Source of the DNA: an uncultured Gemmatimonadales bacterium
GTDB taxonomy: Bacteria > Gemmatimonadota > Gemmatimonadetes > Longimicrobiales > RSA9
Length of the DNA: 64,000 nt
NCBI GenBank assembly: GCA_963708135.1
Contig: OY970192.1
Location: forward strand, 2,720,001-2,784,000
Direction of reading: 5' to 3'
The notes beneath the pieces are model-generated. The model made no database searches. It saw only the letters and a program-made list of their open reading frames with translations, and was not told the origin of the DNA. Made by a program: the position numbers and the translations under genes. Positions 2 to 56,566 of this stretch are shown one piece after another; positions within the stretch are counted from its first letter, which is position 1; each line of letters begins with the position of its first letter.

Positions 2-1540
2 GGCAACAAGACGGACGTGAGCGGAAATGACCTGCTCGAGGCCTGGGAGCACGACCCGCTGACGCGCGTGATCCTGATGTACCTGGAGAGCTTCGGGAAC
101 CCGCGCCGCTTCACGCAGATCGCGCGGCGGGTGACACAGACGAAGCCGATCGTGGTGGTGAAGTCCGGGCGCAGCGCCGCGGGAGCGCGGGCGGCATCGT
201 CGCATACGGGGGCATTGGCGGGGCTCGACCTGGCCACGGACGCGCTGCTCGCGCAGTGCGGCGTGATCCGGGTGGACAGCGTGGAGGCGCTCTTCGACCT
301 GGCCATGGCCTTCGGGACGCTGCCGCTGCCGGCCGGCGACTCCGTGGCCATCGTCACGAACGCCGGCGGCCCCGGGATCATCATCGCCAATGCCTGCGAG
401 GCGGGCGGGCTCGAGGTGGCCGAGCTCTCGGACGTGACGCAGGCGCGGCTGCGCGAGGGGCTCGCCGCGGAGGCGAGCGTCCGCAACCCGGTCAACATGA
501 TCGCCTCGGCCACGCCGGAGAGCTACCGCCACGCGCTCGAGACGGTGCTCCGCGACCCGGGCATCCACGCCGCCATCGCCGCGTTCGTGCCGCCGCTCGG
601 GATCCGGCAGGAGGAGGTCGCGCAGGCCATCGTGCAGGTGCGCGACGCCATCCCCGACAAGCCGATCCTGGCCGTGCTGATGGGACGCGAGGGGCTGCCG
701 GCCGGGCGCGCGGAGCTCAAGGAGGCCGGCGTCCCGGCCTACATATTCCCCGAGTCCGCCGCCCGCGCGCTCTCCGCCCTCGCCCGCCACCGCCGCTGGC
801 TCGAGCGGCCGGCCGGCCGGGTGCGCCACTTCGAGGACGTCAACCGCGAAACCGTCGCCGCGATCCTCGAGCGCTGCGCCGGTGGCGACGGCATGCTGTC
901 GGGCACCGACGCGCTCGACGTGCTCGCGGCGTACGGCGTGCCCACCATCCGCTACCGCGTGGTCACGAGCGCCGAGGACGCCGCGGCGGAGGCGCAGGCG
1001 CAGGGCTTCCCCGTGGTGCTCAAGATCCACTCGCCCGACATCGTGCACAAAACCGACGTGGGCGGCGTGGTCGTGGACCTGCGCACCGCCGACGAGGTGC
1101 GCGAGGCGTTCGACGCGATGATGAAGCGCGTGCGCGACGCCGTGCCCGACGCCCGCATCGAGGGCGTGCTCGTGCAGCAATACGCGCGCGGCGGGCGGGA
1201 GACGATCGTGGGCATGACCTACGACCCGAAGTTCGGACCGCTGCTCATGTTCGGGCTGGGCGGGATCTACGTCGAGGCGCTCCGCGACATCGCGTTCCGG
1301 ATCCAGCCCGTGAGCGACATCGACGCGCTCGAGATGGTCCGCTCGATCCGCGGGGTGAAGCTGCTCGAGGGGATCCGCGGCGAGCCCGCCGCCGACATGG
1401 ACGCCATCATCGAGGTCATCCAGCGCATCTCCCAGCTGGTCGGGGAGCATCCCGAGATCCGCGAGCTGGACGTCAATCCGCTGCTCGCCACGCCGGCCGG
1501 GGTGACGGGGGTGGATGCGAGGATCAGGATCCAGGCATAA
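2..1540 (+). CDS. Acetate--CoA ligase (ADP-forming) family acyl-CoA synthetase, 5'-truncated by window edge
   Basis: GNKTDVSGND, SSHTGALAG and TNAGGPG motifs; C-terminal ATP-grasp (VVLKIHSPDIVHKTDVGGV, DPKFGPLLMFGLGG, ELDVNPL). Confidence 0.92.
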   Translation, partial: GNKTDVSGNDLLEAWEHDPLTRVILMYLESFGNPRRFTQIARRVTQTKPIVVVKSGRSAAGARAASSHTGALAGLDLATDALLAQCGVIRVDSVEALFDLAMAFGTLPLPAGDSVAIVTNAGGPGIIIANACEAGGLEVAELSDVTQARLREGLAAEASVRNPVNMIASATPESYRHALETVLRDPGIHAAIAAFVPPLGIRQEEVAQAIVQVRDAIPDKPILAVLMGREGLPAGRAELKEAGVPAYIFPESAARALSALARHRRWLERPAGRVRHFEDVNRETVAAILERCAGGDGMLSGTDALDVLAAYGVPTIRYRVVTSAEDAAAEAQAQGFPVVLKIHSPDIVHKTDVGGVVVDLRTADEVREAFDAMMKRVRDAVPDARIEGVLVQQYARGGRETIVGMTYDPKFGPLLMFGLGGIYVEALRDIAFRIQPVSDIDALEMVRSIRGVKLLEGIRGEPAADMDAIIEVIQRISQLVGEHPEIRELDVNPLLATPAGVTGVDARIRIQA

Positions 1541-1541
1541 T

Positions 1542-2090
1542 CAGAACGGGCACGGGTCACGGGCAGGGGCACGCGGACGGGCAGAAACGGCAGGCAGCCG
1601 GGCAGGGGCATGCGAAGGGGCACGCCCACGGGAACGGGAACCCCGGCAGGCACCCGGCCCGCCGCCATCGTTCCGCTGCCCGTCCCGGTGCCGGTGCCCT
1701 TGCCTGCCTGCCTGCGGGAGCTGCCCGTCCGCGTTCCCGTGCCCGTGGCCCCTGCCCGTCCGTTGAGAGACCGGGGCACGGGGCACGGGCAGGCGCACGC
1801 GGACGGGCAGAAACGGCAGGCAGCCGGGCAGGGGCATGCGAAGGGGCACGCCCGCGGGAACGGGAACCCCGGCGGGCACCCGGTCCGCCGCCATCGTTCC
1901 GCTGCCCGTCCCGGTACCGGTGCCCTTGCCCGCCTGCCTGCGGGAGCTGCCCGTCCGCGTTCCCGTGCCCGTGGCCCCTGCCCGTCCGTTGAGAGACCGG
2001 GGCACGGGTCACGGGCAGGCGCACGCGGACGGGCAGAAACGGCAGGCAGCCGGGCAGGGGCATGCGAAGGGGCACGCCCACGGGAACGGG
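1542..2090. repeat. Tandem array of 226-bp imperfect palindromic units (2 full units plus a left half-unit) upstream of four-helix-bundle gene
   Basis: Units start at about 1548, 1774 and 2000; left arm ..CACGCGGACGGGCAG is complementary to right arm CTGCCCGTCCGCGT.. Confidence 0.95.
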
Positions 2091-2144
2091 AGTCGGCGCA
2101 TTCTGGTATTCTGGTGCCCCGGAAAGCCGGCCAGCTTGGCCGGC

Positions 2145-2543
2145 ATGGTTCGACTCGATCACGAACGGCTCGAGGTTTACGGGATCGCGCTCCGATTCGA
2201 TAAGGAGATTCGCGGGCTGCTCCGGAGCATGCGGGCGCGGGGCGACACCGTCAACCAACTGAAGCGCGCTTCCGCCTCGGTGGTCCTCAACCTGGCCGAA
2301 GGTGCGGGTGAGTTCTCCGCGCGGGAGAAGACGCGCTTCTATCGGATCGCACGCCGGTCGGCCACGGAATGCGCCGCTACCCTGGATCTGCTCGTGAACC
2401 AGCGAACCCTGACCCGGGAGCAGGTCCTGCCACTCCGTGACCACCTGGTCCGGGTCATCTCCATGCTCGTGCGCCTGATGCAGCAGATCGACGCGGGGAG
2501 CTCTCGCGGGCGGCCCCGCCCACCGTCCCCCAACACCGGGTGA
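2145..2543 (+). CDS. Four helix bundle protein (23S rRNA-IVP / Avd-like family)
   Basis: MVRLDHERLEVY...QLKRASASVVLNLAEG...FYRIARRSATEC signature; 132 aa. Confidence 0.9.
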   Translation: MVRLDHERLEVYGIALRFDKEIRGLLRSMRARGDTVNQLKRASASVVLNLAEGAGEFSAREKTRFYRIARRSATECAATLDLLVNQRTLTREQVLPLRDHLVRVISMLVRLMQQIDAGSSRGRPRPPSPNTG

Positions 2544-2579
2544 GCGTTCGGGTGCAGGTGATCCTAACCGAGCACGGAA

Positions 2580-3921
2580 CAGAACGGGGCACGGGTCACG
2601 GGCAGGCGCACGCGGACGGGCAGAAACGGCAGGCAGCCGGGCAGGGGCATGCGAAGGGGCAGGGGCACCGGAACGGGAACCCCGGCGGGCACCCGGTCCG
2701 CCGCCATCGTTCCGCTGCCCGTCCCGGTACCGGTGCCCTTGCCCGCCTGCCTGCGGGAGCTGCCCGTCCGCGTTCCCGTGCCCGTGGCCCCTGCCCGTCC
2801 GTTGAGAGGCCGGGCACGGGTCACGGGCAGGCGCACGCGGACGGGCAGAAACGGCAGGCAGCCGGGCAGGGGCATGCGAAGGGGCACGGCCACCGGAACG
2901 GGAACCCCGGCGGGCACCCGGTCCGCCGCCGTTCCGCTGCCCGTGCCGGTGCCGGTGCCCTTGCCCGCCTGCCTGCGGGAGCTGCCCGTCCGCGTTCCCG
3001 TGCCCGTGGCCCCTGCCCGTCCGTTGAGAGGCCGGGCACCGGTCACGGGCAGGCGCACGCGGACGGGCAGAAACGGCAGGCAGCCGGGCAGGGGCATGCG
3101 AAGGGGCACGGCCACCGGAACGGGAACCCCGGCGGGCACCCGGTCCGCCGCCATCGTTCCGCTGCCCGTCCCGGTGCCGGTGCCCTTGCCCGCCTGCCTG
3201 CGGGAGCTGCCCGTCCGCGTTCCCGTGCCCGTGGCCCCTGCCCGTCCGTTGAGAGGCCGGGCACGGGTCACGGGCAGGCGCACGCGGACGGGCAGAAACG
3301 GCAGGCAGCCGGGCAGGGGCATGCGAAGGGGCACGCCCACCGGAACGGGAACCGGTCCGCCGCCATCGTTCCGCTGCCCGTCCCGGTGCCGGTGCCCTTG
3401 CCTGCCTGCCTGCGGGAGCTGCCCGTCCGCGTTCCCGTGCCCGTGGCCCCTGGCCGTCCGTTGAGAGGCCGGGCACGGGTCATGGGCAGGCGCACGCGGA
3501 CGGGCAGAAACGGCAGGCAGCCGGGCAGGGGCATGCGAAGGGGCACGCCCACCGGAACGGGAACCGGTCCGCCGCCATCGTTCCGCTGCCCGTGCCGGTG
3601 CCGGTGCCCTTGCCCGCCTGCCTGCGGGAGCTGCCCGTCCGCGTTCCCGTGCCCGTGGCCCCTGCCCGTCCGTTGAGAGGCCGGGCACGGGTCACGGGCA
3701 GACGCACGCGGACGGGCAGAAACGGCAGGCAGCCGGGCAGGGGCATGCGAAGGGGCACGCCCACCGGAACGGGAACCGGTCCGCCGCCATCGTTCCGCTG
3801 CCCGTCCCGGTGCCGGTGCCCCTGCCCGCCTGCCTGCGGGAGCTGCCCGTCCGCGTTCCCGTGCCCGTGGCCCCTGCCCGTCCGTTTTCTCCGTGGACGT
3901 GGCCGTGCCCGTCCGCGTTCC
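2580..3921. repeat. Tandem array of six 212-225-bp palindromic units downstream of four-helix-bundle gene
   Basis: Units start at about 2587, 2812, 3034, 3259, 3471 and 3683; same unit as 1542-2090. Confidence 0.95.
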
Positions 3922-3922
3922 C

Positions 3923-4660
3923 CTACTCCAGGATCAGCCGCGCCCTGCGGAACCGCGCGGCCGCCGCGGCGAAGAGGAGGAGGTCGATCACGAGCAGCGC
4001 GGCGGCGGCGAGCTCGAGCAGGCGGTTCCGCCCGACGCCGGCGACCCACGCGGCGCCCGCCAGGCGCCAGGCGGGCGGAAGCAGGCCAACGCCGAGCACG
4101 GGCAGGAAGAGCACGGCGATGACGGCGGTGGTGAGCACCTGCTGCGCCTGCTTGACCGTGGTCGCGCGGAGCGAGATCAGGACGCCGGCGGCGGCGGTGA
4201 AGCCTGCGCCGAGGATGCTGAAGGCGATGGCGGCGGCGAGCGCGCGGGGCGAGTAAAGCACGAGGCCGGCGTCGCGGTGGGAGAGGTTCACGACGATGAG
4301 AGCGGTGGGCAGGATCGCGAATCCGACACCGATGCCGTAGAGCGTGACGGCGACGGTCTTGCCGAGCAGGATGGCGAGATCGGGGAGCCGCGTCGCGAGC
4401 AGGGTCTCGAGAGTGTGCCGCTCGCGCTCGCCGGCGAAGGTGTCGGGCACCAGGCCGGCGACCTGGAAGGTGGCGGCGAAGGCCACGAAGGCGCCGCCGG
4501 CCCACGAGCGCACGAAGGCCGGCCCCATCTGGAGCGGGTAGAGCACGCCGAGGATGAGGACGATCATGCCGATGCGGTACAGCCCGCGGCGGTTGTGCGG
4601 CTCGAGCTGCACGAGCTCGCGGATCTCCTTCCAGACGACGGTGGCCACGTCCCGGATCAC
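3923..4660 (-). CDS. ABC-2 type transporter permease
   Basis: VWKEIRE start, FAGERERHTLETLLATRL..ILLGK motif, multiple TM helices. Confidence 0.88.
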   Translation of the reverse strand: MIRDVATVVWKEIRELVQLEPHNRRGLYRIGMIVLILGVLYPLQMGPAFVRSWAGGAFVAFAATFQVAGLVPDTFAGERERHTLETLLATRLPDLAILLGKTVAVTLYGIGVGFAILPTALIVVNLSHRDAGLVLYSPRALAAAIAFSILGAGFTAAAGVLISLRATTVKQAQQVLTTAVIAVLFLPVLGVGLLPPAWRLAGAAWVAGVGRNRLLELAAAALLVIDLLLFAAAAARFRRARLILE

Positions 4661-5613
4661 GGCGTTCCCCCCTCCCCCTCCTCCATGAGCGTGAGGAACA
4701 CCTCCTCGAGCGACGCCTTGCCGCGACGCACCTCATCGACCTCCGCGCCCGCGTGGACCAGCGCGGCCACGAGCGGCGCGGGCGTGGCGCCATCGGCCAG
4801 CTCGGCGACGATCCGGCCGTTCTCGAGGCGCGCGCGCCGCACCGCCGGGAGGCACTCGAGCGTCGCCAGCGCGGCGGCGTCCACGCCGCGGGCCACGATC
4901 TCGACGCGCGGGCCGGCGCCGCGGGCGCGCAGCTCGTCCGGGTGGCCCACCGCGAGGAGGCGGCCGCCGCGGATCACGGCCACGCTCGCGCACAGCCGCT
5001 CGGCCTCGGTCAGGTTGTGCGTGGTGAGGAAGATCGTGGTCCCCTCGAGGGCGGCCAGCGCGGCGAGGTCCTCGCGCAGCGCGGCGGCGGCGATCGGATC
5101 GAGGCCGGCCGTCGGCTCGTCCAGGAACACGAGCGCGGGGTGGTGCAGCAGCGCCCGCGCCACGGCCAGCTTCTGCTTCATGCCGCGGCTCCAGCGGCTG
5201 ACGATCTCGCCGCGCCGCTCCCACAGCCCGAAGTGCTCGAGCAGCGCCTGGATGCGCGCCCGCCGCTCCTCCCGCCGCATGTGCCAGATGCGGCCGAAGT
5301 AATCCAGGTTGTCGGCCGCGCTGAGCCGCTCGTAGAGCCCGGTGTGCTCGAGCAGCGCGCCCGAGCGCGCGCGGATCTCGCCGGCCCCGGTGCGCGTGTC
5401 GAGGCCCAGCACCCGGGCGCGCCCGCCGGTCGGCTCGAGGAGCCCGAGCAGCAGCCGTATCGTCGTCGTCTTCCCCGCCCCGTTCGGGCCGATGAAGCCG
5501 AAGACCACGCCCGCCGGCACCTCGAAGCTCAGCCGGTCCGCGGCGACGAGGCTGCCGAACGCGCGCGTGAGCCCCTCCGCCGCGACAGCGGGCGACGCGG
5601 CCGGATCAGCCAT
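4657..5613 (-). CDS. ABC transporter ATP-binding protein
   Basis: Walker A GPNGAGKTT, signature WSRGMKQK, Walker B FLDEPT; overlaps permease start by 4 nt. Confidence 0.93.
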   Translation of the reverse strand: MADPAASPAVAAEGLTRAFGSLVAADRLSFEVPAGVVFGFIGPNGAGKTTTIRLLLGLLEPTGGRARVLGLDTRTGAGEIRARSGALLEHTGLYERLSAADNLDYFGRIWHMRREERRARIQALLEHFGLWERRGEIVSRWSRGMKQKLAVARALLHHPALVFLDEPTAGLDPIAAAALREDLAALAALEGTTIFLTTHNLTEAERLCASVAVIRGGRLLAVGHPDELRARGAGPRVEIVARGVDAAALATLECLPAVRRARLENGRIVAELADGATPAPLVAALVHAGAEVDEVRRGKASLEEVFLTLMEEGEGGTP

Positions 5614-5812
5614 GGCTCGCCTTCCGCGGGCGAGCGCGACCACCGCTGGTCTGGCGCGCGCCCCGGCGATCGCCTACACCTTCAACGGGCCCGGGCCGGC
5701 AGCGCGGGCCGGGCGCGGGCGAGGCCAGCCGGAAGCGGAAAGGTTCGATCATGGCGTGCTACATACCGGTCGGGTGGTCCCGAAGTCAAACCCGGCGCGC
5801 GGGCGGGGACGC

Positions 5813-10063: not shown

Positions 10064-10270
10064 GAGTGGGGGAGTGGGCGAGTGGGGGACGCGGCGGCTG
10101 CGCGGCTATCCTCCGGTTGCCGGGCGCGGAAGACGATCCCGGCGCTCGCGCGCACCGTGGCACCTGCGCACGCCGGCCGGGTCTGCCGGGCCCGGGAACG
10201 CGCGGCGCGCGTCGGCGTCGGCCCGTCTCCCACTCTCCCACTCCCCCACTCCCCCACTCTCCCACTCCCC
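10064..10270. repeat. REP-like element: G-rich octamer run (GAGTGGGN)n and inverted C-rich run (NCCCACTC)n
   Basis: gagtgggggagtgggcgagtggggg at about 10064-10088 and cccactctcccactcccccactc.. at about 10229-10270, between convergent genes. Confidence 0.75.
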
Positions 10271-12836: not shown

Positions 12837-13531
12837 GTGCCGTCCTTGCGCTCGTCGGAGACGATGCGCCCGCTCGAGATGCGGACCACGCGCCGCGCCC
12901 GCGCCGCGAGCTCCTGGTCGTGAGTGACGAGCACGAGCGTGGTCCGGTACTCGCGGTTCAGCTCGACCATGAGGTCGATGATGCGCGCGCCCGTCTCCGA
13001 GTCGAGGTTGCCCGTCGGCTCGTCCGCGAAGAGGATCTTCGGCCGGTTGACGAACGCCCGCGCGAGCGCCACCCTTTGCTGCTCGCCGCCGGAGAGCTGG
13101 GCCGGGTAGTGGTCGAGCCGCCCGCCGAGCCCCACGCGCTCGAGCAGCGCCGTCACGCGCTCCCGGCGCTCGGCCGGGTGGGCGCCGCCCGTGCCCGCCA
13201 GCTCGAGCGGGACCAGCACGTTCTCCACTGCCGTCAGAGTGGGCAGCAGGTGGAAGGTCTGGAAGACGAAGCCGACGTTCGTCGCGCGAAAGCGGGCGCG
13301 CTCGTCCTCGCTCATGGCGTCCAGGTTGCGCCCGGCCAGCTCGACGTGCCCGGCGCTCGGACGGTCGAGCCCGGCGAGCAGGCCGAGCAGCGTCGTCTTG
13401 CCGCTGCCGGACGGGCCGACAATGGCGAGGAACGCCTCAGCCTCGACGTCGAGATCGATCCCGTGCAGCACCACGAGCGGCCGTCCGCCGCTCGTGTAGG
13501 TCTGCTCCAACCCCCTGACGACGATCATCAT
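12833..13531 (-). CDS. ABC transporter ATP-binding protein, YbbA/LolD-like
   Basis: GPSGSGKTT, LSGGEQQRVALARA, FADEPTGNLD, LVTHD. Confidence 0.92.
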   Translation of the reverse strand: MMIVVRGLEQTYTSGGRPLVVLHGIDLDVEAEAFLAIVGPSGSGKTTLLGLLAGLDRPSAGHVELAGRNLDAMSEDERARFRATNVGFVFQTFHLLPTLTAVENVLVPLELAGTGGAHPAERRERVTALLERVGLGGRLDHYPAQLSGGEQQRVALARAFVNRPKILFADEPTGNLDSETGARIIDLMVELNREYRTTLVLVTHDQELAARARRVVRISSGRIVSDERKDGT

Positions 13532-14345
13532 GCCGATCTCGATCCTCCCCGCGAAGCGGCTCCTCCCGTCCCTGCTCCTGCTCCTGGCCGCGTGCGGCGG
13601 AGGCGCGCCCGCCCGGCCCGGCGGCGGCCCGGCCACAGCCGACACCCTGCCGCAGGCGACGACCGCGCCGCCGGCCGCCGGATCCGCCGCCGCCACCACG
13701 GCCCCTGAAGCTACACCGCCGCGCGGCGCCCCACCACACGCCGCGGCCGATACCGCGCGGCCCATCGTGCTGTTCCTCGGCAACAGTCTGACGGCCGGGC
13801 TCGGGGTGGCGCCGGCGGAGGCCTACCCGGCGCTCGTGCAGCAGAAGATCGACTCCGCGGGGCTGGACTTCCGGGTCGTCAACGCCGGCGTGAGCGGCGA
13901 GACGACGGCCGACGGGCTGCGCCGCGTGGACTGGGTGCTGCGCGGGCCGGTGAAGGTCATGGTGCTCGAGCTCGGGGCGAACGACATGCTGCGCGGGCAG
14001 GACCTGGGCGCCGCGGAGAAGAACCTGCTCGAGATCGTGCGCCGCGCCCGCGCGAAGGTGCCCGGGCTGCGCGTCGTGATCGCCGGCATGGAGGCGCCGC
14101 CCAACCTCGGCCCCGCCTACACCGCCCGCTTCCACGCCATCTTCCCGGACCTGGCGCGGAAGAGCGACGCCGCGCTGATCCCGTTCCTCCTGGCCGGCGT
14201 GGCCGGCGACCCCCGGCTCAACCAGCCGGACCACATGCACCCCACGGCGGCCGGCCACAGGATCGTGGCGGAGAACGTCTGGAAGGTGCTCGAGCCTGTG
14301 CTGCGACGGGTGGCGGCGGGGGAGCGGGCGGCGGCGGGACGGTAG
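13530..14345 (+). CDS. Arylesterase/TesA-like SGNH hydrolase, lipoprotein
   Basis: LAAC lipobox, GNSLTAG, NAGVSGETT, ELGAND and DHMHP motifs. Confidence 0.9.
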   Translation: MPISILPAKRLLPSLLLLLAACGGGAPARPGGGPATADTLPQATTAPPAAGSAAATTAPEATPPRGAPPHAAADTARPIVLFLGNSLTAGLGVAPAEAYPALVQQKIDSAGLDFRVVNAGVSGETTADGLRRVDWVLRGPVKVMVLELGANDMLRGQDLGAAEKNLLEIVRRARAKVPGLRVVIAGMEAPPNLGPAYTARFHAIFPDLARKSDAALIPFLLAGVAGDPRLNQPDHMHPTAAGHRIVAENVWKVLEPVLRRVAAGERAAAGR

Positions 14346-14353
14346 GGCCTCGA

Positions 14354-14965
14354 CTGCGCCTTCTCGCGCGGGGGCTGAACGGACGGGATGGGGATGGGGG
14401 TGGGGTTCGGGATCGATGGCGGCGGCTGCCCGGGTACGCCGATCTCCGGTTGCGCTGCTCGCCGGCGCGCCGCACGCTCACGGCAACCCCGCGCCGCCGC
14501 CGCCCCGCTTCCACCCCCGACCCTTCCGCACCGGCCGACGGGGCGGACTGATCCTGCGCCTTCTCGCGCGGGGGCTGAACGGACGGGTTGGGGATGGGGT
14601 CGGGGTTCGGGATCGGCGAGGGCGGCTGCTCGGGTACGCCGATCTCCGGTGGCGGCTGCTCGCCGCCGCGCGCACGCTGCACGGCAACCCCGCGCCGCCG
14701 CCGCCCTGCTTCCACCCCCGACCCTTCCGCACCGTTAACCAAAACTAAAACCAAAACTAAAACCAGCCGACGGGTCGGACTGATCCTGCGCCTTCTCGCG
14801 CGGGGGCTGAACGGACGGGTTGGGGATGGGGTCGGGGTTCGGGATCGATGGCGGCGGCTGCCCGGGTACGCCGATCTCCGGTTGCGCTGCTCGCCGGCGC
14901 GCCGCACGCTCACGGCAACCCCGCGCCGCCGCCGCCCTGCTTCCGCCCGGCACCCGTCCGCACCG
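14354..14965. repeat. Three tandem units of about 200 bp upstream of second four-helix-bundle gene
   Basis: Units begin CTGCGCCTTCTCGCGCGGGGGCTGAACGGACGGG at 14354, 14554 and 14786. Confidence 0.92.
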
Positions 14966-15099
14966 GCGGGGCGACCGGTCCAGACATTCCGCCGCCCCGC
15001 AGGCGGCGCCAGGTTCGGGGAAAGCGGCGGGCGGCGGGGCGGCGAGGTGCCGCGCGGTCGATCCGCGGACGACTCCTGGCTCTGCCCGATTGGCCCGGC

Positions 15100-15462
15100 A
15101 TGACTCCGAGAGATGGGTTCGATCATGAACGGCTGGAGGTGTTCCAGGCGGCGATCCAGCTGGCAGTGCTGATCGATCAGGTGGTGGAGCGAATCGCGCC
15201 CGGGCGCGCCGAGCTCGCGGACCAGCTCCGGCGCGCATCCACGTCGGTGCCGCTGAACATCGCCGAGGGCGCCGGCGAGTTCAGCCCGAAGGAGAAAGCA
15301 CGCTTCTACCGGATGGCCCTGCGCTCGGCGACGGAGTGCGGCGCGATCCTCCTGCTCCTCGAGCGCCTTGGGCTGCCGATCGATCCCGCGCCTCGCCGGC
15401 TGCTGCTCAGGATCGTGCCGATGCTCGTCCGGCTCTGCCAGAATGGACGGCGGGCCGGCTGA
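15100..15462 (+). CDS. Four helix bundle protein (23S rRNA-IVP / Avd-like family), second paralog
   Basis: FDHERLEVF...DQLRRASTSVPLNIAEG...FYRMALRSATEC; 120 aa. Confidence 0.9.
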   Translation: MTPRDGFDHERLEVFQAAIQLAVLIDQVVERIAPGRAELADQLRRASTSVPLNIAEGAGEFSPKEKARFYRMALRSATECGAILLLLERLGLPIDPAPRRLLLRIVPMLVRLCQNGRRAG

Positions 15463-15675
15463 GAACATCGTCGGACCCGGGCGTTCCGGGTCACCCTGGC
15501 GCCCGGCTGCCGGAGGTGGTGCGGCCGGGTTCCGGGGCGGCGGTCGAGGGGCCGAGGGGGCCGAAGGTAGGTTCAGGGTGGTAGCCGGCCGACGCGGGGT
15601 GGGGTTCGCAGTGAGCCCTCCGCGCGCCAGCGACGTTCCCCGCCGGAAGCACGCGCACCCGGGCGGCCCGCCGTG

Positions 15676-15713
15676 TCGATCCCGATCCCCGACCCCAACC
15701 CCAACCCGTCCGT
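15676..15713. repeat. Inverted copy of the G-rich arm of the 14354-14965 unit
   Basis: Reverse complement matches 14811-14848 at 36 of 38 nt. Confidence 0.88.
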
Positions 15714-15736
15714 CGGGACGCCCGGATGAGCCCGGC

Positions 15737-17608
15737 TCACCCGGCGGCCTGCCTCCCGCCGCCGCTCGCCCGCAGCGCGTTCAGGATGACGGCGACGTCG
15801 ATCGCCTCCTGCGCCAGCGCGCCGACCGTGGGCGGGATCATGCCGAAGGCGGCGAACACCATCCCGACCGCGCTGAGGCCGAGGCCGACCCAGATGCTCT
15901 GGCGCGCGATGCGCAACGTGCGCCGGCTGGTGCGCAGCGCCTCGACCACGCGGTCGAGCTCGTCCACCAGGATCACGATCTCGGCCGCCTCGGTGGTGAT
16001 CCCGCCGCCGTGGCCGGCCAGCGCGATGCCCACGTCGGCGGTGCTGAGGGCGGGGGCGTCGTTGGTGCCGTCGCCGACCATGACCACGCCGTCGTGGCCG
16101 CGCCGCAGGTCCCGGATGGCGGCCACCTTGTCCTCGGGGAGCAGTTCGCCCCGGGCATCCTCGATGCCGAGCTCGTCGGCGATCGCGCGCGTGTGGCTCG
16201 CGTGGTCGCCGGAGAGCAGGACGGTGCGGCGGATCCCGAGCCGGCGCAGGTCGGCGAACACCTCGGCCGTCCCCGGCCGCAGGCGGTCCGCGAAGCGGAT
16301 CATGCCGGCGGCCCCTCCATCCACGGCCACGTACGCCCTGAGCCCCGTCCACGTCTCGCCCAGCGCGGTGAGCGTGGGCACGGCGTCGGGGGCGAGCAGC
16401 GCGATGTAGCCCAGCGAGCCGACGGCGACGCGGCGGCCGGCCACGTCGCCTTCCACCCCGCGACCCGGCGACTCCGTGACGTGCAGCCCGGCGCCCGGGC
16501 GGATGCCGCGCGCCTCGGCGGCGGCCACCACGGTGCGGGCGAGCAGGTGGCTGGAGGCCTGCTCGGCCGTGGCGGCCAGGCGCAGCAGCTCGTCGGCGCT
16601 GAAGCCGGGTGCGGGGTCGAGTCCGGAGACCTGCGGCTGCCCGATCGTCAGCGTGCCGGTCTTGTCGAAGACGACGATGGTGGCGCCCGCCAGCTGCTCG
16701 AGGGCGCCGCCGTTCCGCACGATCACCTGGCGCCGCGCCGCCCGGTTGATGCCGCCGATGATCGCCACGGGCGTGGCCAGGATCAGTGGACAGGGCGTGG
16801 CGATGACGAGCACGGCCAGCACCCGCACCGGGTCGTGCGTGAGCAGGAGGACCAAGCCGCAGAAGAGGAGCGTGATGGGCGTGAACCAAACGGCGTAGCG
16901 GTCGGCCAGGCGCTGGAGCGGCGACTTGCTCTCCTGCGCGGTGCGCACGAGCTCCACGATGCGCGCGTACTGGCTTTCGCGGGCGAGGGCCGTGGCGCGC
17001 AGCCGCAGCGAGCCCTCGCCGTTCACGCTGCCGCTCAGCAGGTGCGCGCCCGCCTCGGTCGGCACGCCCATCGGCTCGCCCGTGAGCCGCGAGGCGTCCA
17101 CGTGCGAGCGGCCATCGACCACCACGCCGTCGCACGGCACCAGCTCGCCCGGCCGGACGAGCAGCAGGTCGCCGACCGCCACCGCGTCGGCCGGCACGTC
17201 CTCGAGCGCGCCGTCGCGCACCCGGTGCGCGTGCCGCGGCGCCGCCTCCTCGAGCTCGCGGACGGCCCGCGAGGCACGGCCCTCCGCGTAGCGCTCGAGC
17301 GACTCGCCGCCCGTCTGCATCAGCACCACCACGAGGCCCGCGAGCGGCTCGTTCAGCAGCACCGCCGCCAGCACCGCCAGGGAAGCGACGAGGTCCGCCG
17401 CGAATTTCCCGCGCAGCGCCCCGCGCAGCGTGCCCAGGACCACCGGCGCGCCGACCAGGATGAGCCCCGCCTCGAGCGTAAGGTGGCCCCACCGCTCCAG
17501 CCCCGGGAGGAAGCGCAGGGTCGTGCCCACCAGGATGAACGCCAGCGCGGCGGCCGGGAACAGCACGGCCCCGCGGCGACGATCCATGGCCGGCAGCCGG
17601 CGGCTCAC
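15737..17608 (-). CDS. Heavy-metal translocating P-type ATPase, P1B-5-type motifs
   Basis: TGE, TPCP, DKTGT and GDGTND; QSIWVGLGLSAVGM and PTVGALAQEAIDVAVILN; GTG start after AGGAGG. Confidence 0.92.
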   Translation of the reverse strand: MSRRLPAMDRRRGAVLFPAAALAFILVGTTLRFLPGLERWGHLTLEAGLILVGAPVVLGTLRGALRGKFAADLVASLAVLAAVLLNEPLAGLVVVLMQTGGESLERYAEGRASRAVRELEEAAPRHAHRVRDGALEDVPADAVAVGDLLLVRPGELVPCDGVVVDGRSHVDASRLTGEPMGVPTEAGAHLLSGSVNGEGSLRLRATALARESQYARIVELVRTAQESKSPLQRLADRYAVWFTPITLLFCGLVLLLTHDPVRVLAVLVIATPCPLILATPVAIIGGINRAARRQVIVRNGGALEQLAGATIVVFDKTGTLTIGQPQVSGLDPAPGFSADELLRLAATAEQASSHLLARTVVAAAEARGIRPGAGLHVTESPGRGVEGDVAGRRVAVGSLGYIALLAPDAVPTLTALGETWTGLRAYVAVDGGAAGMIRFADRLRPGTAEVFADLRRLGIRRTVLLSGDHASHTRAIADELGIEDARGELLPEDKVAAIRDLRRGHDGVVMVGDGTNDAPALSTADVGIALAGHGGGITTEAAEIVILVDELDRVVEALRTSRRTLRIARQSIWVGLGLSAVGMVFAAFGMIPPTVGALAQEAIDVAVILNALRASGGGRQAAG

Positions 17609-17769
17609 GGCGCATGCCTCCTTCGCGATGGAACTCTCACGGCCCTCTCCTGCGTTGGCGCCCGCTCCCGCCAAGCTAGGCCATCCACGCGGGCCCGGTT
17701 GTCGGGCGTTCCCCGGCGGCGGTGTCGGGAGATCCTCGGCTTGCCCCGGAGCCGCCCCTTCCCCGCGCC

Positions 17770-17990
17770 GAGAGTGGGAGAGTGGGCGAGCGGGGGAGTG
17801 GGAGCAGCGCCGGGCGAGGCAGCGTTCCGGCGGCTGACCTCGGCTCCGCTGGACGCCCGCGGCCGATCGCTCCGGGTTCCCGGCACCGCCAGCGGACGTG
17901 AACCGCCGCGAGCGAGGCCAGGCCCGGGACGCCCGGCCGCCGCAATCGCCGCCCGGTCTCCCCACTGCCCCGCTCTCCCGCTCCCGTTCT
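17770..17990. repeat. Octamer REP-like element (GAGTGGGN run and degenerate inverted run)
   Basis: gagagtgggagagtgggcgagcgggggagtgggag at about 17770-17803; C-rich counterpart at about 17957-17990. Confidence 0.6.
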
Positions 17991-54418: not shown

Positions 54419-55054
54419 ATGCGCGAGGTGCGGGACGGCGACGTCGCATGGGATGTCACGGCGGAGTGGGCCTACAACCCTTCGGCATGGCGGGAGCGGA
54501 TCCCGGAGGCGCTGCTGGCGCTCCTCGCGCTCGGCGTCGGGCTCTACCTGGGCGGCTATCAGGTCCATTTCTGGGACACCGTGTGGGACCCGTTCTTCGG
54601 AGGCGGCACGGCGGCGGTGCTGGAGTCGGACCTCTCGCATCTTTTCCCGGTCCCGGACGCGCTGCTCGGCGCGGGCGGGTACCTGCTCGACCTGGTGCTG
54701 GTGCTGGCCGGCGGCAGGGAGAGGCACCGCACGGCGCCGTGGATCGTCCTGCTCTACGGGCTCGCCACGGTGTCGGTGGCCGCCAGCGGCATCGCGCTCA
54801 CGGTCTCGCAGGGCGCGATCGTGGGCAGCTGGTGCTTCCTCTGCCTGGTGACGACCGGCATCTCGCTCACCCTGCTCTACCTCTCCTGGGACGAGGTCTG
54901 GCTGGCCGCGCTGGTGGTCTGGCGGCGCTGGTCGGCGGGCGTTCCGCTGCGGCGGGCGCTCCTCCCCCGGCCCGGCCCCCGCCCGAGCCCCCCGCCCTTC
55001 CCCTCCCGACGCGGGGACGCGGGGCCACACCACGAGGGTGATCGCGCGCCGTGA
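54419..55054 (+). CDS. Vitamin K epoxide reductase (VKOR) family protein
   Basis: YNPSAW, VWDPFFG, PDALLG and WCFLC CxxC; GGAGG RBS. Confidence 0.8.
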   Translation: MREVRDGDVAWDVTAEWAYNPSAWRERIPEALLALLALGVGLYLGGYQVHFWDTVWDPFFGGGTAAVLESDLSHLFPVPDALLGAGGYLLDLVLVLAGGRERHRTAPWIVLLYGLATVSVAASGIALTVSQGAIVGSWCFLCLVTTGISLTLLYLSWDEVWLAALVVWRRWSAGVPLRRALLPRPGPRPSPPPFPSRRGDAGPHHEGDRAP

Positions 55055-55191
55055 CCGCTCGGCAAAGTCGCGGTCCACTGGCGCCCGCGGCCGCCCGGAA
55101 GGTTCCGGGCGCGATCGCCGCATCGGTGTGGCCCCGCGTCCCCGCGTCGTGCGGCGGGGCGGGGGCGGGCGTCCGGGGAAGGGGGCCGCCG

Positions 55192-56566
55192 TCAACGGCC
55201 GGGCGGGGGTGACGCCCGCCGGCGCCGCACCATCTCCCGCGCCCGAGATGCACGCGGCCACCCACACGATGCCCGCGGCGTAGCCGCCGACCACGTCGCT
55301 GAAGTAATGGACGCCGAGATAGAGGCGGCTCGCTCCGATGCCGAGGATGAGGAGCGCGGCGGCGCCGATGATCGCGGCCCGGCCAGCGCCGGAGCGGACA
55401 CGGTGGAACAGGAAGTAGGCGATCATGCTGAAGGCGATGAGCGAGCCCATGGCGTGGCCGCTCGGGAAGCTCCAGCTCGGCACGACGGCGAAGGGGTCGG
55501 TGAAGACGGGCCTCGGCCTGCGCACGATGTCCTTCAGCCCGAGGTTGAGCAGTCCGCCCCCGAAGACGGCGGCGACCCATACCTGCGCGAACAGGCGCCG
55601 CCGGGCGAGGACGAAGGCGGCCGCGAGCACCACCGCCAGCACCAGCATGGACGGGAAGGAGCCGATGTCCGAGAGGAGCCGGCTCACGGCGAGGCCCGCG
55701 GGGCTGGCGGACGCGTGCAGCCGCTGGTCGAGCGCGATGTCGAAGCGGGTCAGCGGGTCGCCTTCCACCACGTCCTCGAGGATCCCGCCGAAGAGCCAGA
55801 GCGCTCCGAGGCTCACGACCATGCCGATGGTCAGGTGCAGCCCGAGATACGCGCCCGGCGTCAGCCGCCGCACGATGAACTGGAGCGCACCCGGGTAGCG
55901 CTGCGCCAGGCGACGCGCGGTGGCCGAGCCCGCCAGCCGCTGCCACCATCCCTCGACCGTACGCCAGATCGTCTCGCGCGCGTTCCAGCTGGCGCGCGCG
56001 ACCATGACGAGCGCGACCCCGAGCGTGGCGAGCAGCGCCACCGTCAGCATCGCCGCCGCCGTGCCTCGCTCGACGCGCGGCAGCGTGCGGCCGAAGCCGT
56101 AGCCGAGCCCCGAGAACACGCCCGCCCAGACCACGGCGCCGAGGGCGTTGTAGGCCATGAAGCGCCTGAACGGCATGTGTGCCACCCCCGCCATCAGCCC
56201 GACGTACGAGCGCAGGACGGCGACGAAGCGGCAGCCAACGATCGCGGCGGGGCCGTAGCGGTCAAAGAAGGCGCGCGTCCGCGGCAGGACTTCGGTGCCG
56301 AGGCGCAGGCGGGCCCCGAACCGGCGCACGAACGGCTCGCCCCCGCGCAGCCCGATCCAGTAGCCGATCGCGCTGCCCAGCGCACCGCCGAGGACGGCGG
56401 CCGCGACCACCCAGCCGATCTCCAGCCGCCCCGCCGCGGAGAACGCCGCGCCGGACACGAGCACCGTCTCCGCGGGGAGCGGCACGCCAATGCCCTCGAC
56501 GAGCGCCACCAGAAAGATGATGGCCGCGCCATAGACACGAACGCCGTGAAGGAGCGTCTCCAGCAT
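55192..56566 (-). CDS. Bifunctional DedA / PAP2 phosphatase family protein, frameshifted near 55237
   Basis: DedA GVPLPAE..RF..LR; PAP2 K..RPRP, SFPSGH and SRLYLGVHYFSDV; removing one C at 55236-55238 gives CISGAEMVRRRR.. ending at 55192. Confidence 0.85.

Follow-up and report, generated by a model that had tools for sequence, protein, structure and literature searches.

The question raised by this locus is why a gene for a small four-helix-bundle protein stands in the middle of a tandem array of long hairpins. The gene, a member of the PF05635/TIGR02436 family, lies near the start of a stretch of 64,000 nucleotides (the window: positions 2,720,001 to 2,784,000 of contig OY970192.1, assembly GCA_963708135.1) from an uncultured Gemmatimonadales bacterium, the genome of which is one contig of 5.45 Mb with 72% G+C. 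Positions below are those of the window unless genome positions are indicated. To our knowledge, no function has been assigned to this large and widespread family since it was first discovered in intervening sequences (IVS) of ribosomal RNA (rRNA), and the only known role is that of its member Avd in diversity-generating retroelements (DGRs). In this complete genome, nine of the eleven stand-alone members are packaged in the manner of an IVS between repeats of their own, with up to 11 empty units beside the gene, which makes their role a question that can be taken to the bench. We give an even chance to the reading that the locus is a rearranged and tandemly amplified copy of the repeat-armed, IVS-type cassette that wraps these nine genes, with hairpins that would likely be cut by RNase III and an array that likely grew by unequal recombination or slippage.

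The gene and its array of hairpin units

The gap between the two genes that flank the locus measures 2382 nt from stop codon to stop codon (1541-3922) and consists of eight full hairpin units, one half unit and the four-helix-bundle gene (Table 1). Since the first unit, U1, starts directly behind the TAA that closes the upstream gene, and a degenerate remnant runs up to the last base ahead of the permease stop codon, the whole gap is made up of cassette and array. The original prediction that a cassette fills the space between two convergent genes therefore holds, with repeats abutting both stop codons.

At 1548-2091, Tandem Repeats Finder identified a 226-nt unit in 2.4 copies (97% matches, score 1039), and it also reported arrays with periods of 424 and 212 nt at 2690-3886 and 3140-3886 (94-98% matches, scores 2095 and 1452). 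A separate repeat search placed nine left arms in register, at spacings of 226, 226, 587, 225, 222, 225, 212 and 212 nt. The eight full units have a mean column identity of 95%; those from U4 to U6 are 225, 222 and 225 nt long, while U7 to U9 are 212 nt each and lack 13 nt at the hairpin tip. The arms are composed of degenerate ACGGGC/GCCCGT words and form 66-74 Watson-Crick pairs with each other over 89-94 aligned positions. At least 12 such hexamers per 200 nt were found at only 11 places in the 5.45-Mb genome (mean 0.74), two of which belong to this array. The plus strand of the unit at 2806-3030 is predicted to fold into one long imperfect hairpin of -175.1 kcal/mol, as compared to -126.4 +/- 5.1 kcal/mol for 200 dinucleotide shuffles, none of which folded as well (z -9.5), and the minus strand gave -166.1 kcal/mol (z -7.9). 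Taken together, the Tandem Repeats Finder results, the arm spacings and the folds bear out the proposed array of imperfect hairpin units of 212-226 bp, with 2.4 units upstream of the gene and six downstream. The units on the two sides of the gene represent two subtypes, with for example CACGGGAACGGG versus CACCGGAACGGG and GAGAGACCGGGG versus GAGAGGCCGGG, which suggests that the two sides have had time to diverge since the gene came to lie within the array.

Two other explanations for the periodicity were rejected. A coding repeat does not fit, as neither 226 nor 212 nt is divisible by three and both strands contain open frames, the G+C content being 72%. An array of clustered regularly interspaced short palindromic repeats (CRISPR) does not fit either, as the units abut without spacers and each is self-complementary. 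A search against Rfam gave only matches to microRNA hairpins, with 21-32 bits against gathering scores of 74-107.

The gene extends from the ATG at 2145 to the TGA at 2543. The encoded protein scored 67.1 bits against PF05635 (cut-off 33.8) and 61.4 bits against TIGR02436 (cut-off 24), both over the full domain, so that the profile search places it in the four-helix-bundle family as had been proposed. The predicted fold agrees: the AlphaFold model of the 132-residue protein, computed from an alignment of 21 sequences that included 10 of the 11 paralogs in the genome and 11 of 47 loci from other genomes, has four helices (predicted local distance difference test, pLDDT, 92.7). The helices are predicted at residues 6-28, 34-53, 59-85 and 91-120, and are followed by a basic, proline-rich tail. 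The invariant alignment columns R41, N49 and E75 are present in the protein, and the gene looks intact as judged from its sequence. The best match among solved structures was 2rld_B (E 1.4e-4), with a template modelling (TM) score of 0.76 when normalised by the query and 0.89 when normalised by the target, followed by 2gsc_E (E 1.6e-4). Both are uncharacterised members of the family, with TM scores to the target of 0.85-0.89. Chains of Avd from the DGR of a Bordetella phage were placed lower in the list, at 0.71/0.76 for 8ub7_B and 0.69/0.83 for 4dwl_D (query/target), with 11-12% sequence identity. A Pfam scan of the protein matched PF05635 only, with no known catalytic domain and no nuclease, HUH or recombinase domain, and none of the PADLOC families of anti-phage defence models was matched.

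The junctions between the gene segment and the array differ. The left junction falls at about column 99 of the 226 columns in the unit alignment, close to the hairpin tip, while the right junction coincides with the start of a full unit and is preceded by CAGAAC, as is U1. Direct copies of the left arm thus stand on both sides of the gene, which has no right arm of its own. According to the original prediction, the open reading frame (ORF) could lie in the loop of a long stem, formed by the arm of the half unit U3 and a right arm downstream. This structure is possible but is not the favoured fold: the RNA at 1993-2804 is predicted to fold at -450.0 kcal/mol with U4 paired to itself over 77 pairs and only 6 pairs between U3 and the right arm of U4, whereas the enclosing stem, when forced by masking the left arm of U4, reached -377.7 kcal/mol, which is 72 kcal/mol worse.

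Complementary repeats at the paralogous genes

The profile search identified 11 matches to PF05635 in the genome, 10 of which were above the cut-off. To score the flanks, the 450 nt upstream of each gene were compared with the reverse complement of the 450 nt downstream, and the same was done at 1500 random positions, all in this genome (mean 25.8, 99th percentile 40, maximum 104). The 11 genes scored 39, 41, 111, 102, 184 (this locus), 24, 103, 77, 43, 119 and 27. Nine of them have complementary flanks, with scores that were reached by at most 21 of the 1500 random positions, and for six of the 11 the score was reached by at most one. At nearly every paralog, a short tandem repeat is located upstream of the gene and its reverse complement downstream, and the repeated word differs from locus to locus (CGCTTT/GCGAAT, GGTTTT/ACCCAA, GGGGCAGGTTCAGGTGGA and its complement, GGGTTGGGGATGGGG/CCCCGACCCCAACCC, and units of 15 nt). 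The suggested association of the family with inverted repeats is therefore strong, complementary flanks being present at nine of 11 genes. The hexamers of this array are not common to them, each locus having its own repeat.

The paralogous proteins are 18-61% identical, from which we conclude that the paralogs are old; the exception is one pair with 82% identity and a common arm type. The nearest paralog of the gene studied here (53% identity) has GGCAGAAACGG[A/C]AGGCAG in its arm in common with it. That arms are common to the nearest protein pairs and different otherwise suggests that gene and arms have been inherited together. Amplification is also seen beside the paralog at genome positions 3235004-3235399, where a 225-nt unit is repeated 11 times and a 141-nt unit 3.9 times, ending 24 nt from the gene. 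Another paralog is located in the window (Table 1), with three copies of a left arm of about 182 nt and a right arm of 144 nt that is 71% complementary; its score of 102 was reached by one of the 1500 random positions. Tandem Repeats Finder reported nothing at score 80 in 13000-16500, though the three left-arm copies are present there.

The leaders of the genes also have a word in common, C[CT]AT..GCCC[CG]G, which is located 37-39 nt before the start codon in four paralogs, is found in strict form in six of 10, and occurs in near form in this gene (2107-2122) and in one other paralog. This word could be a promoter or serve as a binding site. A hidden Markov model built from the six sites matched just its training sites at E < 2, and hence the word could not be sought in the empty hairpins. 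The leader of this gene further contains a perfect 7-bp hairpin, GCCGGCC-AGCTT-GGCCGGC, at 2126-2144, which ends at the start codon.

Distribution in other genomes and metagenomes

Genes of the PF05635 family were found in 15 of the 21 genomes searched, including the source genome. At a flank score of at least 40, which is the 99th percentile of the null from the source genome only, complementary flanks were present at 12 of the 26 loci scored in relatives. The same was true for 22 of 42 loci in genomes of Gemmatimonadota, Myxococcota, Planctomycetota, Verrucomicrobiota and other groups, and for 23 of 58 loci on metagenome contigs, where 22 more loci were too short to score. The set from contigs of other genomes comprised 47 loci and that from metagenomes 80 loci, kept from 135. 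Long-period arrays beside the gene were observed at five of 74 loci in other genomes, two of which consist of clear hairpin units: one locus (L057) contains 2.7 copies of a 141-nt unit between two PF05635 genes, and the other (L124) contains 2.4-2.7 copies of a unit of 94-100 nt. None of the 80 metagenome loci contained such an array; short-read assemblies may collapse them. A rule that the G-rich arm is always located upstream was rejected, as the 22 cassettes scoring at least 40 include eight with a G-rich and nine with a C-rich upstream arm.

No orthologue closer than 53% protein identity was found among the 47 loci from other genomes and the 80 of 135 loci from metagenomes. No metagenome contig was matched when the last part of the upstream gene was used, as a 24-nt word, to look for an empty site, and a search for this unit in relatives returned just short low-complexity matches, the best of which had an E-value of 2.6e-6 over 37 nt. 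The ABC ATPase-permease pair downstream of the array is kept in four relatives. In the two that were read (L077 and L078), other genes follow within about 60 nt after the permease gene and there is no array, but these are not true empty sites since the CoA-ligase gene is not adjacent there.

In the draft genomes of five relatives (G001, G003, G004, G005 and G006), seven of the PF05635 matches listed start at most 600 nt from the first base of their contig, as would be expected if the flanking repeats break short-read assemblies.

A proposed stand-alone counterpart of rRNA intervening sequences

The closest known parallel to the cassettes is provided by the IVS of 23S rRNA. In Coxiella burnetii, the loop of the helix-45 IVS carries an S23p ORF, and the 28-bp stem is cut at its middle by RNase III (PMC4990558). 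The same source states that the function of the protein in such ORF-bearing IVS, for which Leptospira is also cited, is unknown, and that they have long been suspected to be remnants of mobile DNA (PMC4990558). As in Coxiella, the ORF of the PF05635 family is located here between complementary termini with the potential to form a stem (PMC4990558). Such IVS-like termini are present at nine of the 11 paralogs; at this locus the left arm is present, and the next unit pairs with itself in the predicted fold. The locus differs from the IVS in that it is located outside rRNA and has arms of about 100 nt made of degenerate hexamer words rather than a 28-bp stem. It also differs in that a gene-less hairpin is repeated eight times in tandem and the ORF is unenclosed in the predicted fold. 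In the full-text literature searched, from which subscription journals are largely absent, the gene-in-hairpin design was found for rRNA IVS only. We take the cassettes to be a stand-alone counterpart of ORF-bearing rRNA IVS, and their layout suggests that gene and hairpin are likely insertable as a unit.

The ancestral unit would have consisted of a left arm, a leader, the gene, a trailer and a right arm. Gene-less hairpins of left and right arm would have arisen from it and multiplied in tandem by unequal recombination or slippage between arms, after which the sub-arrays on the two sides would have diverged. Slippage combined with template switching at quasi-palindromes is a known path of replication errors, and may be what keeps the arms complementary. 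By analogy with the IVS, each transcribed unit would pair into a stem of about 100 bp and be cleaved by RNase III, which would separate the cassette from the transcripts of both convergent neighbours. The protein, which is modelled with the fold of the DGR factor Avd, a nucleic-acid binder, would bind these repeats.

The mismatches within the arms were used to ask on which strand the pairing is kept. Across 43 cassettes, mismatches of the G.U type were more numerous in the sense than in the antisense strand (85 versus 60, binomial p 0.046). Counted by cassette, the sense strand had more in 18 cases and the antisense strand in seven, with 18 ties, and by duplex energy 22 cassettes favoured the sense strand and 13 the antisense strand, while eight showed no preference. 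These numbers lean weakly towards pairing in the sense-strand RNA and do not amount to a result.

Several observations weigh against the reading of the locus as an amplified cassette of the IVS type. The predicted fold of 1993-2804 leaves the gene unenclosed, so that this copy is without the defining stem around its ORF. The few variable columns of the eight units show no covariation and no compensatory changes, and units that are 95% alike provide no usable test of compensatory change. As to the strand, positions in tandem repeats are not independent, for which reason the G.U counts give only a lean; the nine cassettes of this genome alone have 49 sense and 39 antisense mismatches of the G.U type, and 288 of the 433 mismatches in the 43 cassettes pair on neither strand. 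A scan of the locus with the sigma-70 consensus detected no promoter-like sites, and no terminator-like sites were detected either. A search of sequencing runs listed no RNA run with this stretch. Outside this locus, two of the 11 paralogs have no complementary flanks. One of them lacks the upstream arm, and the other, at genome positions 2369073-2369336, is cut off at 87 amino acids by what looks like an insertion sequence, since the 300 nt that follow recur at no fewer than 10 other places with 99-100% identity. Furthermore, about half of the loci in other genomes and metagenomes score below 40, and 37 of the 43 inverted-repeat hot spots of the genome carry no four-helix-bundle gene. The cutting of the stem, the binding of the repeats and any mobility are inferred steps.

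Gene-less copies and alternative readings

Sequences resembling the arms are found at eight or more other loci for nine of the 11 cassettes, often with both arms together. In comparison, 88 of 300 random 300-nt segments had some far match and 36 matched at least four other 1-kb bins, and the gene-less copies of arms are an enrichment rather than an absolute difference. Both arms are matched at seven of eight far loci for the cassette studied here, at seven of 12 for the cassette at genome position 3905195, and at nine of 22 for that at 5253485. A partial copy of the unit (142 nt, 92-96% identical) is located 2.66 Mb away at genome positions 65918-66064, among apparent gene fragments. The analogy to repetitive extragenic palindromic (REP) sequences and the REP-associated tyrosine transposases (RAYTs) that had been drawn for the locus is thus sound with regard to layout, in that a gene is flanked by its own hairpin repeats and gene-less copies are located far off for nine of the 11 cassettes; the same pattern is seen in the NTS/Ssn system.

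These copies could also be products of the protein itself. According to this explanation, which we consider unlikely, protein and repeat form a cognate system of the REP/RAYT or NTS/Ssn kind, in which each paralog recognises its own arms and promotes their copying, amplification or dispersal, and the eight empty units are its products. The family of arms that is specific to each cassette, the excess of far loci over the controls, the co-occurrence of both arms at these loci, the common arm type of the 82%-identical protein pair and the distant partial copy of the unit are all in favour of it. In addition, ssnA genes are reported to lie between hairpin repeats of their own, copies of which are scattered all over the genome (PMC11893778). 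On the other side, the protein consists of the PF05635 bundle only, and duplication of entire cassettes would account equally well for the arms in common. No enzyme is required for the tandem order, and the background of far matches (88 of 300 segments) is not small in a GC-rich genome.

The RAYTs are HUH/Y1 enzymes, and the REPs are short, number in the hundreds, and occupy intergenic positions, often clustered or at the 3' ends of genes. The likeness to REP/RAYT is that cognate palindromic repeats enclose the gene and are also found in intergenic regions; the differences are that the Pfam scan detected no HUH/Y1 domain, that there are few copies, and that the unit length is 212-226 nt. In the NTS/SRM system, the repeats are 20-50 nt long and Ssn is a GIY-YIG nuclease with demonstrated cleavage activity (PMC11893778). 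The likeness to NTS/Ssn consists in a small single-domain gene between hairpin repeats of its own, gene-less copies of which occur throughout the genome, and in homologues with variants of their own (PMC11893778). The difference is that the protein is here a helical bundle without a known catalytic site, with no GIY-YIG domain in the Pfam scan, and that the arms are tandem short repeats which are completely different between paralogs. It is doubtful that PF05635 proteins are generally trans-acting partners of short-tandem-repeat hairpins, as the third combination of a protein and its cognate repeat beside REP/RAYT and NTS/Ssn, with each paralog reading the sequence of its own arms and the empty arrays as their products. 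If true, this would provide a function for the ORFs of rRNA IVS and an origin for many unexplained intergenic short tandem repeats in bacteria. The cassettes could also be the source of some of the short tandem repeats and long palindromes at which metagenome assemblies break.

Alternatively, the hairpin may be the primary element, a palindromic repeat resembling miniature inverted-repeat transposable elements (MITEs) or Rickettsia palindromic elements that is spread or amplified by functions of the host or by another enzyme, with the four-helix-bundle gene as cargo at or near its tips. Rickettsia palindromic elements and MITE-like repeats are lineage-specific hairpins of 100-250 nt that are located between and sometimes inside genes and contain no gene of their own. 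The repeats studied here are similar in being hairpin-forming sequences of 100-250 nt between genes, but differ in that one protein family is regularly found inside the hairpins. The left junction at the hairpin tip agrees with the gene being cargo, as do the many gene-less elements and arrays whose ends are of the GAGTGGG type (seven units of 234 nt, six of 238 nt and six of 251 nt) and the 37 of 43 hot spots without such a gene. The right junction is placed at the start of a unit and not at the tip, which is not what a simple insertion into the loop would give. Furthermore, the arms differ between paralogs and are common to the two nearest protein pairs, and nine of 11 genes of one family are wrapped in this way. 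We give this explanation a small chance, the same as that of a cognate system.

That the array is an artefact of the assembly or a chance product of low-complexity, GC-rich sequence is very improbable: contigs from a low-depth soil-metagenome DNA run, the only run found to contain the stretch and with a fraction of 0.40 of its sampled words, map only to 1000-1436, 2143-2521 and 3847-4400, that is, to the unique flanks and the gene, and leave the repeats uncovered, which is uninformative either way on copy number, but the units carry substitutions and indels of their own (lengths of 226, 225, 222 and 212 nt, and distinct upstream and downstream subtypes), none of the 200 shuffles matched the fold (z -9.5), the genome is one 5.45-Mb contig, and similar arrays are located at four other places in it.

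The least probable explanation, to which we give hardly any credence, is that the gene is a DGR accessory gene of the Avd type or a displaced rRNA IVS. The protein does match the Avd chains 8ub7_B and 4dwl_D in fold, with query-normalised TM scores of 0.69-0.72 for the Avd structures 4dwl and 8ub7, the DGR literature reportedly places Avd in the same Pfam family, and this family is named after the rRNA IVS protein. It differs from Avd in that the sequence identity is 11-12% and no reverse transcriptase was matched in the genome: no match to RVT_1 was obtained at E <= 0.001 in the whole genome, which is 97.65% complete, while control genomes do give matches. The locus is therefore not a DGR, and the protein cannot serve here as the cofactor of a reverse transcriptase. 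Membership in the IVS of 23S rRNA, which are located in helix 9, 25 or 45 of the 23S gene, was likewise rejected. None of the 11 paralogs is located in or near either of the two 23S genes (genome positions 1591976-1594977 and 2603966-2606969), from which it follows that they are not rRNA IVS. Both 23S genes are about 3003 nt long, as compared to a model of 2925 positions, and are at least 116 kb from the nearest paralog.

Features of the locus and other repeats in the genome

Table 1. Features of the array and its neighbours, and the second cassette in the window (window positions).
Feature	Position	Strand	Remarks
3' part of upstream gene, CoA-ligase/ATP-grasp_5 type (ADP-forming acyl-CoA synthetase-like)	2-1540	+	PF13549 (2.3e-84), PF13607, PF19045; TAA at 1538-1540
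Hairpin units U1 (1541-1766) and U2 (1767-1992), 226 nt each	1541-1992	+	Left arm rich in ACGGGC-type words, right arm in GCCCGT-type words
Half unit U3, left arm only	1993-2091	+	Breaks off close to the hairpin tip (alignment column ~99 of 226)
Leader, unique sequence, 53 nt	2092-2144	+	ATTCTGGT twice (2100-2115), word GTGCCCCGG, hairpin
Four-helix-bundle gene, 132 aa, intact	2145-2543	+	PF05635 profile positions 1-105 of 106
Trailer, unique sequence, 36 nt	2544-2579	+	CAGAAC at its end, as also before U1 (1541)
Six full units, U4 to U9	2580-2804, 2805-3026, 3027-3251, 3252-3463, 3464-3675, 3676-3887	+	
Degenerate right-arm-like remnant, 35 nt	3888-3922	+	31-nt period at 3843-3922; ends one base before the permease stop
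ABC-2 permease (3923-4660) and ABC ATPase (4657-5643)	3923-5643	-	Convergent to the upstream gene
Second cassette: left arms	14354-14535, 14554-14735, 14786-14967	+	
Second cassette: PF05635 gene	15100-15462	+	
Second cassette: right arm	15570-15713	+	

The densest regions of hexamer words outside this array are located at genome positions 3377359-3377800 and 3400443-3400839, which are intergenic, contain runs of GGGGAC, GGGCAC, CACACG and GGCAGGTTCAAG words, and have no four-helix-bundle gene within 9 kb. Elements of about 225-250 nt, which have words of the GAGTGGG type at one end and of the CCCACTC type at the other, are dispersed in the genome, either singly or in arrays of 6-11 units. They are located at genome positions 539821-541466, 3128550-3129972, 4709237-4710757 and 3232050-3234523, and in the window at about 10064-10251 and 17752-17977. 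Just one array of this type adjoins a four-helix-bundle gene. A cluster of tandem arrays that are not made of short repeats, with periods of 108, 125, 142, 250 and 283 nt, is located at genome positions 1204607-1208065. An inverted-repeat hot spot at about 54950-55221 in the window (genome positions 2774950-2775221) is self-complementary over 272 nt, with a score of 128.

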